From NCBI GenBank assembly GCA_021469345.1, contig GCA_021469345.1_3049.1: a stretch of 64,000 bases of DNA; one strand, given 5' to 3'. Below are positions 679 through 52,990 of this stretch, in pieces. Origin of the DNA: a phage. Below the pieces are notes generated by a model. The model saw only the letters and a list, made by a program, of their open reading frames with translations. It was not told where the DNA came from and made no database searches. The position numbers and the translations under genes are program-made. The first letter of the stretch is position 1; each line of letters begins with the position of its first letter.

Positions 679-754
679 CGGGGCATAGCTCAGAAGGAAG
701 AGCAAGGACCTTCTAAGTCCTGGGTCGTAGGTTCGATCCCTACTGCCTCGACCA
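679..754 (+). tRNA. tRNA-Arg (anticodon UCU), CCA encoded
   Basis: Hand-folded cloverleaf: acceptor 679-685/744-750, D stem 688-691/700-703, anticodon stem 705-709/717-721 with loop CTTCTAA (TCT at 712-714), T stem 727-731/739-743 with TTCGATC loop, discriminator A751, CCA 752-754. Confidence 0.88.
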
Positions 755-5095: not shown

Positions 5096-5532
5096 AAACA
5101 TTATCAGCTGGTATTATCTTCATGACAGAAGATAAAGATTTATTTATGGGTCGGGTCACTGGTTCTCGTAAGCCTGGAATGATGGCGCATCGCTGGGATA
5201 TTCCAAAAGGGCGTGTAGAAAGTTCTGATTTGAATGCACTGGAAGCTGCAAAAAGAGAATGCTTAGAAGAGACCGGTTTTAGCAATTATAATCCAGACCT
5301 TCTAGAAGACCTAGGTGTATTTAAATATTCTAGTAATAAAGACTTACAGTTATTTTATTATACGATTCCAGTAGAGCATGAGATGTTTAGAAATTGCCAT
5401 TGCGAGTCTTATTTTGAAAATAAAGATGGCGTTATGATTCCAGAGATGGATGCTTTTGCTCTTATTCCTCGTACTCAGTGGCAATATGTGATTGGCCCTT
5501 CACTTTACCGAATAATGAACAGCCTCTTTTAA
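5092..5532 (+). CDS. nudE: Nudix hydrolase
   Basis: Nudix box G-x5-E-x7-REcLEEtGf; position immediately upstream of e as T4 e.1; start trimmed to ATG 5092. Confidence 0.8.
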   Translation: MKTLSAGIIFMTEDKDLFMGRVTGSRKPGMMAHRWDIPKGRVESSDLNALEAAKRECLEETGFSNYNPDLLEDLGVFKYSSNKDLQLFYYTIPVEHEMFRNCHCESYFENKDGVMIPEMDAFALIPRTQWQYVIGPSLYRIMNSLF

Positions 5533-32999: not shown

Positions 33000-34202
33000 A
33001 TGAAAGTATGTATTTTTATGGCTCGAGGTCTTGAAGGTTGCGGTGTAACTAAATTTTCTCTTGAGCAGCGTGATTGGTTTATTAAAAATGGTCATGAAGT
33101 AACTTTGGTTTATGCTAAAGATAAATCATTTACCCGTAATTGCGCGCATGATTATAAATCATTTTCAATTCCGGTTTTATTGGCAAAAGAATACGATAAA
33201 ACACTTAAGCTGGTAAATGATTGTGATATTCTAGTTATCAATTCAGTTCCTGCTACTTCAGTTGAAGAAGACACTATTAATAACTATAAAAAAATTATTG
33301 ATAACATTAAGCCTTCGGTTCGTGTTGTAGTTTATCAGCATGACCATTCTTCTCTTTCTTTGCGTCGAAATTTGGGATTAGAAGAAACTGTTCGTCGAGC
33401 TGATGTTATTTTTAGCCATTCTGATAATGGTGATTTTAATAAAGTTTTAATGAAAGAATGGTATCCGGAAACTGTTTCTTTGTTTGATGATATTGAAGAA
33501 GCACCGACCGTATATAACTTTCAGCCTCCTATGGATATTGCGAAGGTTCGATCAACCTACTGGAAAGATGTTTCTGAAATTAACATGAATATCAACCGTT
33601 GGATTGGTCGTACTACTACATGGAAAGGTTTTTATCAGATGTTTGATTTTCACGAAAAACATCTTAAACCCGCAGGACTAAGTACTATTATGGAAGGTCT
33701 GGAACGTTCTCCAGCGTTCATTCCTATTAAAGAAAAAGGAATTCCATACGAGTATTATCGTCTTCATCAAGTAGACCAAATTAAAATTGCTCCTAATTTG
33801 CCAACGCAAATTCTTGACCGTTATGTAAATAGCGAAATGCTTGAACGCATGAGTAAATCCGGATTTGGTTATCAGTTGAGTAAGTTGGATAAAAAATATC
33901 TACAGCGCTCTTTAGAATATACTCATCTCGAGCTTGGTGCATGTGGAACAATTCCGGTATTTTGGAAATCTACTGGCGAAAATTTAAAATTCCGTGTTGA
34001 TAATACTCCGTTAATTTCACATGATAGCGGTATCGTTTGGTTTGATGAAAATGACATGGAATCAACATTTGAACGTATTAAAGAACTGTCATCTGACCGA
34101 GCTCTTTATGACCGTGAACGTGAAAAAGCATATGAATTTTTGTATCAGCATCAAGATTCAAGCTTCTGCTTTAAAGAACAGTTTGACATTATTACAAAAT
34201 AA
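33000..34202 (+). CDS. agt: DNA alpha-glucosyltransferase (400 aa)
   Basis: translation closely matches T4 alpha-gt as recalled. Confidence 0.95.
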   Translation: MKVCIFMARGLEGCGVTKFSLEQRDWFIKNGHEVTLVYAKDKSFTRNCAHDYKSFSIPVLLAKEYDKTLKLVNDCDILVINSVPATSVEEDTINNYKKIIDNIKPSVRVVVYQHDHSSLSLRRNLGLEETVRRADVIFSHSDNGDFNKVLMKEWYPETVSLFDDIEEAPTVYNFQPPMDIAKVRSTYWKDVSEINMNINRWIGRTTTWKGFYQMFDFHEKHLKPAGLSTIMEGLERSPAFIPIKEKGIPYEYYRLHQVDQIKIAPNLPTQILDRYVNSEMLERMSKSGFGYQLSKLDKKYLQRSLEYTHLELGACGTIPVFWKSTGENLKFRVDNTPLISHDSGIVWFDENDMESTFERIKELSSDRALYDREREKAYEFLYQHQDSSFCFKEQFDIITK

Positions 34203-44198: not shown

Positions 44199-44450
44199 AT
44201 GGAAACTTTAGTAGCAGGTTCAATTTTTATGGTTTTAGTTTCAGGTGTGTTGGCTATTATTATATACATGCTTCCATGGTTTATCGCCTTGATGCGTGGG
44301 TCAAAATCGACAGTAGGAATCTTTTTCACATCTTTACTGTTTAACTGGTCAATTATTGGTTGGTTTATTACATTTATTTGGTCAATTGCAGGTGAAACTA
44401 AAAAGTCTGCACAACCAAATCAAGTAATTATCATCAGAGAGAAGGAATGA
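44199..44450 (+). CDS. imm: superinfection immunity protein Imm (83 aa, membrane)
   Basis: two hydrophobic helices; size and position between genes 43 and 42. Confidence 0.8.
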   Translation: METLVAGSIFMVLVSGVLAIIIYMLPWFIALMRGSKSTVGIFFTSLLFNWSIIGWFITFIWSIAGETKKSAQPNQVIIIREKE

Positions 44451-44596
44451 AAAGCAAAATTATAACAGTGTTGCTTTTAATCTTGATGATTATAATAAGT
44501 ATATACTATAGTGTAACGGTTCCTCTTATGATTCCAACTATTATTTTAGGTTGGGGTTTATTACTGTTACAAGTTAAATATGAATGTATCAATTGA
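44447..44596 (+). CDS. hypothetical small membrane protein (49 aa)
   Basis: ATG overlaps imm stop; hydrophobic. Confidence 0.4.
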   Translation: MKSKIITVLLLILMIIISIYYSVTVPLMIPTIILGWGLLLLQVKYECIN

Positions 44597-44603
44597 GGTT
44601 TAA

Positions 44604-45344
44604 ATGATTAGTGACTCTATGACAGTTGAAGAAATCCGTCTTCGTTTGGGGCTTGCATTAAAAGAAAAAGATTTCGTAGTTGATAAAACCGGTGTTAAAA
44701 CTATTGAAATTATTGGCGCATCATTTGTAGCAGATGAACCGTTTATTTTTGGCGCTCTTAATGATGAATACATTCAGCGTGAACTTGAATGGTACAAGTC
44801 TCAAAGTCTGTTTGTTAAAGATATTCCAGGTGAAACACCAAAGATTTGGCAGCAGGTAGCATCTTCTAAAGGCGAAATTAACTCGAATTATGGCTGGGCT
44901 ATTTGGTCAGAAGATAACTATGCCCAGTATGATATGTGTTTAGCTGAACTTGGTCAAAATCCTGATTCTCGACGTGGTATCATGATTTATACTCGTCCAT
45001 CCATGCAATTTGACTACAATAAAGATGGTATGTCAGATTTCATGTGTACTAATACAGTACAGTACCTGATTCGTGATAAAAAAGTCAATGCAGTAGTAAG
45101 CATGCGCTCAAATGACGTGGTCTTCGGATTCCGTAATGATTATGCATGGCAAAAATACGTATTAGATAAATTAGTATCTGATTTGAATGCCGGCGATTCA
45201 ACTCGTCAGTATAAAGCAGGTTCTATTATATGGAATGTTGGAAGTCTTCATGTATATTCTCGTCATTTTTACTTGGTTGATCATTGGTGGAATACTGGCG
45301 AAACTCATATTGTGAAAAAAGATTATAACGGTGAGTGGAAATGA
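44604..45344 (+). CDS. 42: dCMP hydroxymethylase gp42 (246 aa)
   Basis: thymidylate-synthase-like fold motifs; size and position as T4. Confidence 0.93.
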   Translation: MISDSMTVEEIRLRLGLALKEKDFVVDKTGVKTIEIIGASFVADEPFIFGALNDEYIQRELEWYKSQSLFVKDIPGETPKIWQQVASSKGEINSNYGWAIWSEDNYAQYDMCLAELGQNPDSRRGIMIYTRPSMQFDYNKDGMSDFMCTNTVQYLIRDKKVNAVVSMRSNDVVFGFRNDYAWQKYVLDKLVSDLNAGDSTRQYKAGSIIWNVGSLHVYSRHFYLVDHWWNTGETHIVKKDYNGEWK

Positions 45345-46183
45345 TTCAATTCGTAATTCCAAGCTATCAGCGTGTTGGGGCAGTTTCTGCCCTTGATATG
45401 TTTCCAACTGATTATGAACCTCATATTGTAGTGCGTGAACACGAAGAAAAAGCTTATTATGATGCCTATGGGTCTAAAGCTAAAATTGTAACTATTCCTG
45501 ATGATGTAAACGGAATTGCCGGTACTCGTAAAGCAATTACTGATATGTATGCAGGTCAACGAATCTGGATGATTGACGATGATACTACTATTCGTATGAG
45601 TTCAATGCGAAAAAGAGATGATCGTCGTTGCGTAGATAAAGTCAATCAATTAACCCGTGAACAATTCTACGAATTGATTCAATACGTTGAAGATGCTATG
45701 GATTGCGGGTATTATCATGGTCATGCTCGTCTACCTATTTTTAAAATTACTTCATCTTGGGGTAATTATCGTGAAAATTCATATGGATTCACGAATACAT
45801 GGTATGACCTTGGAAAACTTACGACAGAACAAATTGGGTATGGAAAAATTGATTTGTGCGAAGATATGTATGCATTTCTCAATTTAATTAATCAAGGTTA
45901 TCCGCATTTGGCTTTGTTCAAATATCTGGTTGTATCTGGAAAAGCACAAGCTCCTGGCGGGTGTAGTTCAATTCGTAGTAATTCTAAACATAATAGAGCG
46001 CTTGAGCAAATCAATAGAGAGTTTCCAGAGCAAGCTCGTTGGAAAACATCGAATATTGAAAAACGAAAATCGTTGGGTGAAGAAGACGAGCCATTAAAGG
46101 TTCTTCGCATGTGTGTTTCGCGTAAAGAAAAATCAGAAGCATTTCATAAGTTTAATGCTATTCATCCAATAGCAGTTGATTAA
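45341..46183 (+). CDS. putative glycosyltransferase with DxD motif, at the beta-gt locus
   Basis: trimmed from GTG 45335 to ATG 45341; IWMIDDDT motif; not similar to T4 beta-gt as recalled. Confidence 0.55.
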   Translation: MIQFVIPSYQRVGAVSALDMFPTDYEPHIVVREHEEKAYYDAYGSKAKIVTIPDDVNGIAGTRKAITDMYAGQRIWMIDDDTTIRMSSMRKRDDRRCVDKVNQLTREQFYELIQYVEDAMDCGYYHGHARLPIFKITSSWGNYRENSYGFTNTWYDLGKLTTEQIGYGKIDLCEDMYAFLNLINQGYPHLALFKYLVVSGKAQAPGGCSSIRSNSKHNRALEQINREFPEQARWKTSNIEKRKSLGEEDEPLKVLRMCVSRKEKSEAFHKFNAIHPIAVD

Positions 46184-46260
46184 TGCCTAAATTTATTGTG
46201 TTATAATTACTCTATCTTTAACCAGTGAGGAAAATATAATGATGCCTATGGAAAAAATGA

Positions 46261-47442
46261 ATGTCTATTGCAGATTTAAAATCCCGTTTGATTAAAGCTT
46301 CCACTTCTAAAATGACTGCTGAACTGACTACATCTAAATTCTTTAATGAAAAGGATGTAATCCGTACAAAAATTCCAATGCTCAATATCGCTATTTCAGG
46401 TGCGATTGACGGTGGTATGCAGTCTGGTTTAACTATTTTCGCAGGGCCTTCTAAACACTTTAAATCAAATATGTCTTTGACTATGGTTGCGGCATATTTG
46501 AACAAATATCCTGACGCGGTTTGTCTATTCTATGATAGTGAATTTGGTATTACTCCAGCTTATTTGCGATCCATGGGAGTTGACCCGGAACGAGTAATTC
46601 ATACGCCAATTCAGTCAGTTGAACAGCTGAAAATTGATATGGTGAACCAGCTTGAAGCTATTGAGCGCGGTGAAAAAGTCATTGTATTCATCGACTCAAT
46701 CGGTAATATGGCTTCTAAGAAAGAAACTGAAGATGCCTTGAATGAAAAATCTGTGGCAGATATGACTCGTGCTAAATCACTGAAGTCATTATTCCGTATT
46801 GTTACTCCTTATTTTAGTATTAAAAACATTCCATGTGTTGCGGTTAACCACACAATTGAAACAATTGAAATGTTTAGTAAAACCGTGATGACAGGTGGTA
46901 CAGGCGTAATGTATTCGGCTGATACCGTATTCATTATCGGTAAGCGTCAGATTAAAGATGGTTCTGATCTTCAGGGGTATCAATTTGTTCTAAATGTAGA
47001 AAAATCTCGTACCGTTAAAGAAAAAAGTAAATTCTTTATTGATGTTAAATTTGATGGTGGTATCGATCCTTATTCTGGATTGTTAGATATGGCTCTAGAA
47101 TTAGGATTTGTAGTAAAACCTAAAAATGGCTGGTATGCTCGTGAATTTCTTGATGAAGAAACCGGCGAGATGATTCGCGAAGAAAAATCTTGGCGTGCAA
47201 AAGATACCAATTGCACTACATTCTGGGGTCCTTTATTTAAGCATCAACCATTCCGAGATGCTATTAAACGTGCTTATCAGTTAGGTGCTATTGATAGTAA
47301 TGAAATTGTTGAAGCTGAAGTTGATGAATTGATTAACTCAAAAGTTGAAAAATTTAAATCTCCAGAAAGTAAAAGTAAATCAGCAGCTGATTTAGAAACT
47401 GACCTCGAGCAGTTAAGTGATATGGAAGAATTTAATGAATAA
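46261..47442 (+). CDS. uvsX: UvsX recombinase (RecA-like)
   Basis: Walker A GPSKHFKS; close match to T4 UvsX as recalled. Confidence 0.95.
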   Translation: MSIADLKSRLIKASTSKMTAELTTSKFFNEKDVIRTKIPMLNIAISGAIDGGMQSGLTIFAGPSKHFKSNMSLTMVAAYLNKYPDAVCLFYDSEFGITPAYLRSMGVDPERVIHTPIQSVEQLKIDMVNQLEAIERGEKVIVFIDSIGNMASKKETEDALNEKSVADMTRAKSLKSLFRIVTPYFSIKNIPCVAVNHTIETIEMFSKTVMTGGTGVMYSADTVFIIGKRQIKDGSDLQGYQFVLNVEKSRTVKEKSKFFIDVKFDGGIDPYSGLLDMALELGFVVKPKNGWYAREFLDEETGEMIREEKSWRAKDTNCTTFWGPLFKHQPFRDAIKRAYQLGAIDSNEIVEAEVDELINSKVEKFKSPESKSKSAADLETDLEQLSDMEEFNE

Positions 47443-49777: not shown

Positions 49778-50071
49778 ATGAAAAAATTTATCTTTGCTAC
49801 AATTTTTGCTTTGGCTTCTTGTGCTGCTCAGCCTGCTATGGCAGGTTATGATAAAGATTTGTGCGAATGGTCTATGACTGCGGATCAGACTGAGGTTGAA
49901 ACTCAAATTGAAGCAGATATTATGAATATCGTTGAGCGCGATCGTCCTGAAATGAAAGCTGAAGTGCAAAAACAACTTAAGTCTGGTGGTGTAATGCAGT
50001 ATAATTATGTTCTGTATTGCGATAAAAACTTTAATAACAAAAATATCGTAACCGAAATCACAGGTGAATAA
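49778..50071 (+). CDS. sp: Spackle periplasmic protein (97 aa)
   Basis: trimmed to ATG 49778; signal peptide; size and position as T4 sp. Confidence 0.75.
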   Translation: MKKFIFATIFALASCAAQPAMAGYDKDLCEWSMTADQTEVETQIEADIMNIVERDRPEMKAEVQKQLKSGGVMQYNYVLYCDKNFNNKNIVTEITGE

Positions 50072-50072
50072 T

Positions 50073-50705
50073 ATGATTTATTATATGCACAAAAATCCAC
50101 CGTTTAAATACGGTAAATTTCCTGATGCACAATGTTATAATATAACGCCTGATGAAAATAACCGTGGATATCTTATTGGCACAATTTTTGTAATTGTTAA
50201 AGATAACGAAATCGTTGCCTGGGCAGATTTTAAAGGTACAACACATGATGTTAATCCGGTGCCTTTCACATATTACAATATAATGGATTTGGCATATGAT
50301 TATAATTGGTTTAATCATGACAATTTAGTTCATATTGAAGGCGTAGGATTTGACATCTCTTATTCTAGTTATTCGTTGTGCCCTATGAGCCGAGCTTATA
50401 AAGAGCCTGAATATTTTTCATTTCGTCGGCGTGTAGACTTTAAACGCAGTACAGAGTATGTCGGTGGAATCTTTGTTAAAGATAATCGAATTACTCGCAT
50501 TATTTATCCTTTGGGCTTTGGTCAAAAAGATATTGATGTTGATTTAGACTTTACTGAAAACAGCATTAATCATATTGCTTCTGTGTATTTTGATATTGAT
50601 CACAAAATTGTAATATGTGGATATGAATTACCATCCGAAAAACAGTCTAAAGTAAATGTTTCTATTGATGACCAAATTTTTAATGCTTTTATGAATAGAG
50701 GTTAA
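50073..50705 (+). CDS. hypothetical protein (61.2 position, 210 aa)
   Basis: trimmed from GTG 50064 to ATG 50073. Confidence 0.55.
   Translation: MIYYMHKNPPFKYGKFPDAQCYNITPDENNRGYLIGTIFVIVKDNEIVAWADFKGTTHDVNPVPFTYYNIMDLAYDYNWFNHDNLVHIEGVGFDISYSSYSLCPMSRAYKEPEYFSFRRRVDFKRSTEYVGGIFVKDNRITRIIYPLGFGQKDIDVDLDFTENSINHIASVYFDIDHKIVICGYELPSEKQSKVNVSIDDQIFNAFMNRG

Positions 50706-52201: not shown

Positions 52202-52990
<789 letters not shown>

Follow-up and report, generated by a model that had tools for sequence, protein, structure and literature searches.

A T2/T6-type β-glucosyl-HMC-α-glucosyltransferase gene between gene 42 and uvsX of a T4-like phage

Since the times of classical phage chemistry, the DNA of T2 and T6 has been known to carry β-1,6-glucosyl-α-glucosyl (gentiobiosyl) hydroxymethylcytosine (gentiobiosyl-hmC) (PMC6024577, PMC13216743, PMC13390438). 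Neither phage has a β-glucosyltransferase (β-GT), and in both of them gentiobiosyl-hmC is made by an enzyme of the TAGT (TET-associated glycosyltransferase) family (PMC13216743, PMC6024577, PMC13390438, PMC11078745), which transfers glucose from UDP-glucose, in β-1,6 linkage, onto the α-glucosyl-hmC already present in DNA (PMC13216743, PMC11078745). Genetic work with T6 revealed that phages deleted for the gene (known as ba-gt, ggt or g-gt) have DNA that is degraded by the Brig1 glycosylase and are more sensitive to Brig1 (PMC11078745), and a T6 delta-g-gt strain was put to the same use in later work (bioRxiv 10.64898/2026.02.25.707755). More generally, phages usually pair either an α-glucosyltransferase (α-GT) or a β-GT with a TAGT, α-GT plus TAGT being the majority configuration in Tequatrovirus, so that the α plus β pair of T4 is the exception, found in 6 of 753 phage genomes encoding glucosyltransferases (PMC13216743).

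In this work, we analysed a stretch of 64,000 nucleotides of phage DNA (hereafter, the window) for which the original prediction, made from the letters alone, had pointed to a glycosyltransferase other than that of T4 at the locus where T4 carries its β-gt gene. The open reading frame, its orthology with T2 and T6, family membership, GT-A fold, motif conservation and co-occurrence with a-gt and gene 42 were all computed here, whereas the gentiobiose chemistry, the T6 deletion phenotype and the LC-MS data on near-identical phages come from the literature.

The gene and its neighbours

The locus and its partner gene elsewhere in the window comprise the following features:

33000–34202, + strand: a-gt, DNA α-glucosyltransferase (PF11440 AGT at 5.2e-236)
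44604–45344, + strand: gene 42, dCMP hydroxymethylase (PF00303, thymidylate-synthase family, at 1.3e-15; collinear and near-identical with T4 gp42)
45341–45344, + strand: ATGA, in which the start codon of ba-gt overlaps the stop codon of gene 42 (aATGA), read directly from the sequence
45341–46183, + strand: ba-gt (ggt), β-glucosyl-HMC-α-glucosyltransferase of the TAGT family with a GT-A fold, 280 aa (supported by the ORF, Pfam, PHROG, identity with T2/T6 and the structural model)
46261–47442, + strand: uvsX, the downstream neighbour (PF21134 and PF00154, RecA)

The open frame that ends at 46183 on the + strand begins, in the six-frame ORF list, with a GTG at 45335, and an ATG at 45341 opens an intact ORF of 280 aa with the same length (843 nt) as the annotated T2 coding sequence. 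Judging from its homologues in 689 phage records, this ORF is genuine and no chance frame. Both flanks claimed for it were confirmed, gene 42 by collinearity with T4 and uvsX by its Pfam domains, and the α-gt gene that the original prediction had placed at 33000–34202 is indeed conserved there. The order 42 – ba-gt – uvsX is the same in T2, T6, EL and EH2; in the window, 77 nt separate ba-gt from uvsX. The ATGA overlap, which is also annotated in T2, T6 (AP018814), EL and EH2, suggests that ba-gt is co-transcribed with gene 42 and may be translationally coupled to it. No gene of the PF09198 type (T4 β-GT) occurs between 42 and uvsX in the window, and no TET/JBP dioxygenase gene adjoins ba-gt, whose neighbours are gene 42 and uvsX. 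A scan for promoters and terminators around ba-gt gave no excess over a shuffled background, and a terminator-like hairpin at 45377–45393, inside the coding sequence, is probably due to chance. The wider region from 30000 to 54000 (24 kb) shows about 97% identity to many Tequatrovirus genomes.

Some other genes of the window deserve a brief mention. Between imm and gene 42, positions 44447–44596 (+) encode a conserved and very hydrophobic ORF of 49 aa (MKSKIITVLLLILMIIISIYYSVTVPLMIPTIILGWGLLLLQVKYECIN), whose counterparts in WL-3, EL and EH2 bear the label of hypothetical or phage protein; the T4 copy, with three substitutions, is intact and unannotated in NC_000866. At 50064–50705 (+), next to the primase gene, lies a homologue of gp61.2 which, with an E value of 1.5e-137, matches the Pfam anti-defence family AdfA (Anti-DarT factor A). 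Finally, both ARAGORN and Rfam detect a single tRNA-Arg(TCT) at 679–754 (+), probably the edge of a T4-type tRNA cluster.

The identity of the ORF is supported by several comparisons. The Pfam family PF20691 (TAGT) is matched at 38.1 bits against a gathering cut-off of 27.5, with residues 3–207 covering profile positions 2–205 of 205, a modest score because distant TET-associated proteins make up most of the model. The match to PHROG 842 (phrog_842), described as "beta-glucosyl-HMC-alpha-glucosyltransferase", reaches 2.8e-89; NCBIfam has no model for the protein. In a direct comparison with the T2 and T6 glucosyltransferases, of the kind that had been proposed as a check, 274 of 280 residues (98%) are identical to T6 AP018814, and the proteins of both T2 records share 276 of 280, differing from the window protein by R11H, K46R, V50I and P251S. 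The differences in T6 are Y40N, K46R, V50I, D55G and R106H, to which the lesions of two T6 records (see below) have to be added. Thus, the T2 and T6 genes (T2 AYD82639.1; T6 BBF63468.1 and AXN58083.1) are the same gene as that of the window, with 98–99% identity, 280 aa, the same position between 42 and uvsX, the same ATGA overlap and the same co-occurrence with a-gt. EH2 differs from the window protein by 2 substitutions and WL-3 by none, and phages EH2, NR1, TB37, QOTSP and EL of the Durham Collection are among the closest matches. The gene is said to have been cloned originally by Winkler and Rueger, in a paper of 1993 in Nucleic Acids Research.

Searches with the gene and its flanks by megablast retrieved 545 phage records, 477 of them covering most of the query; "beta-glucosyl-HMC-alpha-glucosyl-transferase" is a recurrent annotation in them for the gene flanked by those of dCMP hydroxymethylase and UvsX. 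Similarly, tblastn found a homologue in 689 phage records, over at least 80% of the length in 685 of them: 102 records at an identity of at least 99% and 370 at 95–99% (RB3, RB51, wV7, ime09, Shfl2 and T6 included), about 200 at 60–80% in T4-like phages of Klebsiella, Enterobacter, Salmonella and Proteus, and one at 48% in a Serratia phage. Altogether, we are highly confident that the ORF encodes the T2/T6-type β-glucosyl-HMC-α-glucosyltransferase, with gentiobiosyl-hmC as its product, which is the first of the two options that the original prediction had left side by side, the other being a different DNA sugar-modifying transferase. The finding is correct but ordinary, as T4 is already known, at textbook level, to differ from T2/T6 in this respect.

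The genomic position by itself, which is the slot of β-gt in T4, could have indicated a diverged β-glucosyltransferase of the T4 type, that is, a GT-B enzyme of families GT63 and PF09198 (PDB 1JG7) that puts a single β-glucose on 5hmC. Besides the slot downstream of gene 42, both enzymes share the use of UDP-glucose and a β linkage on modified DNA, but they are unrelated in sequence and fold, and the T4 enzyme acts on bare 5hmC instead of α-glucosyl-hmC. When the T4 protein itself was tried as a match (NP_049658, locus L001), the best BLASTP hit had an E value of 2.2 over 8 residues; T4 β-gt matches PF09198, whereas the window protein gives no match to this family at E up to 1, and its model shows a single-domain GT-A rather than a two-domain GT-B architecture. 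A T4-type enzyme can be discarded on these grounds, and the lack of similarity to T4 β-gt, stated in the original prediction, holds when computed.

Fold, conserved residues and family

The AF2 model of the window protein (pLDDT 95.2) consists of a single α/β domain, and fold searches with this model retrieved GT-A enzymes and nucleotidyltransferases. The predicted structure thus has the GT-A fold of nucleotide-diphospho-sugar transferases and includes a DxD motif, in line with the initial reading of the segment IWMIDDDT. Searches of the PDB by sequence, either with the single protein or with a profile of 82 sequences, gave only chance-level matches, with no detectable solved structure for the family; the weak match to entry 9jma (AvpGT, E 2.2) is meaningful only given the support of the fold search. 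Similarly, inverting GT-A enzymes of the GT2 type such as TarS and TarP of S. aureus, AvpGT, WrtF and K4CP of E. coli show 8–16% identity and no significant sequence match, and their acceptors are lipids, teichoic acids or glycans, whereas that of the window enzyme would be glucosylated duplex DNA.

An exhaustive HMMER search with an E cut-off of 1e-3 yielded representatives of 330 clusters, and a family alignment was built with the window protein and 81 full-length relatives (19–78% identity to it), all 82 of which match PF20691. The motifs IPSYxR, DDD, ED, GGC and R are common to the window protein and these 81 diverse relatives. Four residues are invariant (82/82), D80, D175, G186 and G207, while R11, D79, D81, G206 and R212 each occur in all sequences but one (81/82), R11 in all 81 without a gap at this position. 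The codons of the residues discussed below are:

45371–45373, + strand: R11 (Arg in 81/81 sequences of the family alignment, His in T2)
45575–45583, + strand: D79-D80-D81, DxD-type motif in IWMIDDDT (residues 75–82, nt 45563–45586; D80 in 82/82, D79 and D81 in 81/82)
45860–45865, + strand: E174-D175, CED motif (D175 in 82/82, E174 in 67/82)

In the model, the DDD motif follows the strand of residues 74–78. By analogy with GT2-type enzymes, D79–D81 have a putative role in binding the metal and the nucleotide sugar. D175 lies about 95 residues past the DxD motif, at the start of the helix 174–184, and is the likely candidate for the catalytic base of an inverting mechanism, by analogy with GT2-type GT-A enzymes.

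The TET/JBP association that gives PF20691 its name, and that its HMM does not demand, is found neither at this locus of the window nor in T2 and T6, which Pfam and the literature count in the family all the same. In contrast with the TET-associated TAGTs, gp42 would make 5hmC here at the level of the nucleotide, and a sugar on the base (α-glucosyl-hmC) would serve as acceptor instead of 5hmC itself. One may ask whether the window protein could be a TAGT with another specificity, acting directly on 5hmC or using a different sugar donor, and thus not producing gentiobiosyl-hmC. TET-associated members are thought to act directly on 5hmC, the family is as diverse as its 330 representatives indicate, and many phages have a solitary TAGT, with neither α-GT nor β-GT, which suggests other acceptors (PMC13216743). 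The window protein, however, is only 2 aa away from that of EH2, whose DNA contains gentiobiosyl-hmC by HPLC/MS (PMC13390438), and 4 aa away from that of T2. Moreover, none of the differences from EH2 or T2 alters an invariant residue in the window protein, and the window has α-gt, whose product makes the acceptor. Another specificity is consequently very improbable, and the protein is best regarded as the gentiobiosyl-forming enzyme of T2 and T6.

Sugar pattern and degree of diglucosylation

The pathway is established for T2 and T6, and for the phage of the window it is predicted from its genes. There, gp42 would make hm-dCMP, which would be built into replicated DNA as 5hmC. The α-GT encoded at 33000–34202 would then transfer glucose from UDP-glucose onto 5hmC in α linkage, giving the acceptor of the ba-gt protein, which is predicted to bind UDP-α-glucose and a divalent metal through D79–D81 and to transfer a second glucose, with inversion, to the 6-OH of the first one. 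The resulting β-1,6 linkage would yield gentiobiosyl-hmC. The DNA of the window phage is thus expected to contain bare 5hmC, α-glucosyl-hmC and gentiobiosyl-hmC, with no β-glucosyl-hmC. This is the kind of glycosylation pattern different from T4 that had been anticipated, and it agrees with the literature on T2 and T6, where gentiobiosyl-hmC comes from a TAGT and there is no β-GT.

Measurements on near-identical phages go in the same direction. LC-MS and HPLC detected gentiobiosyl-hmC but not β-glucosyl-hmC in phages whose gene is 97.5–99.3% identical to that of the window, and the authors attributed the second glucose to the TAGT gene, syntenic with T4 β-gt (PMC13390438). The extent of diglucosylation is however highly variable. 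The share of gentiobiosyl-hmC is about 5% in T2 versus 72% in T6 (PMC6024577), and it amounts to about two-thirds in the EH2 group, which lacks a dam-like gene, and about 40% in the EL group (EL/BGP/Geo), which carries one and shows an hmC:glc:gentiobiosyl ratio of about 1:2:2 (PMC13390438). Since near-identical genes go with values from about 5% to about 70%, the sequence does not reveal the extent of diglucosylation. A dam gene is also present in the window:

52211–52990, + strand: Dam-type N6-adenine DNA methyltransferase (PF02086, 6e-51)

A prediction of the mono-/di-glucosyl ratio for the window phage was considered and set aside: its ba-gt allele is nearest to that of EH2, yet its dam gene is as in the EL/BGP/Geo group.

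The sequence records of T2 and T6 themselves hold some peculiarities at this gene. Both T2 genome records (L004 and L005) carry R11H, where the window keeps Arg11, and from the conservation of this position the change is a candidate cause of the weak second glucosylation in T2. As for T6, record AP018814 (L002, 3001–3840) has a 3-nt deletion in ba-gt with the loss of one Asp of the DDD (IWMIDDT), whereas record MH550421 (L003, 3138–3980, minus strand) has a CAG to TAG change at codon 10, its annotated 'ggt' coding sequence starting at Met21 with 261 aa. These lesions could be mutations of laboratory stocks or sequencing errors.

Such observations might lead one to think that ba-gt is weakly active or inactive in the window phage as well, its DNA being essentially α-monoglucosylated as in T2. 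T2, with a near-identical gene, reaches only about 5% of gentiobiosyl-hmC (PMC6024577), and the lesions in both deposited T6 records, together with T2, indicate that phages can do without this function under laboratory conditions. On the other hand, the window ORF is full length and keeps all invariant and nearly invariant residues, R11 included, and its allele is identical or nearly so to those of phages with about two-thirds of gentiobiosyl-hmC (EH2). A weak or inactive enzyme is very improbable, and an active ba-gt making gentiobiosyl-hmC stands as the preferred reading.

History of the locus and meaning of the finding

A short remnant of the gene can still be recognised in T4. It corresponds to the following segment of the window:

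46161–46185, + strand: final 23 nt of ba-gt and the 2 nt that follow, present as a relic in T4 (blastn-short 24/25, 96%, E 1.4e-6)

The T4 relic, which includes the ba-gt stop codon, maps at about 5238–5262 of locus L001 (NC_000866), on the minus strand and directly upstream of segA. At the other end of the locus, T4 and the window cease to be homologous within gene 42, 18 nt short of its end. Taken together, the relic upstream of segA and the break close to the end of gene 42 suggest that a β-gt cassette displaced an ancestral TAGT gene in T4. The words segA, remnant, synteny and homing are absent from a 2026 NAR paper on the T4 glucosyltransferases.

The 42 / glucosyltransferase / uvsX locus is an insertion site of homing endonucleases. 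In T4, the homing endonuclease gene segA sits between β-gt and uvsX (locus L001, 4571–5236); in WL-3 (MT968995, locus L006, 1863–2504), an endonuclease gene separates 42 from the TAGT gene, and several Klebsiella phages carry a GIY-YIG gene beside their TAGT gene. Neither segA nor any other homing endonuclease was found in the 42–uvsX locus of the window by DNA alignment.

We tentatively propose, as a combined scenario that is possible but on balance doubtful, that the TAGT gene is ancestral in the slot between 42 and uvsX, where it was displaced by β-gt in T4, and that variation at residue 11 determines how much of the hmC is mono- and how much di-glucosylated. If the part on residue 11 were true, it would explain the contrast between T2 (5%) and T6 (72%), and the window phage, with its Arg11, would be predicted to be a high-gentiobiosyl phage.

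The sugars on hmC are far from indifferent for the phage. Brig1 attacks α-glucosyl-hmC DNA and spares gentiobiosyl-hmC DNA (PMC11078745), the enzyme BapA releases no glucose from gentiobiosyl-hmC DNA (bioRxiv 10.64898/2026.02.25.707755), and GmrSD-type enzymes target DNA with either α-glucosyl-hmC or gentiobiosyl-hmC (PMC13216743). Although the identification of ba-gt in the window adds no new biology, it is of use for annotation and for the prediction of host range in phage therapy, as the gene tells which pattern of hmC sugars the DNA carries and, with it, the sensitivity of the phage to host defences and laboratory enzymes.
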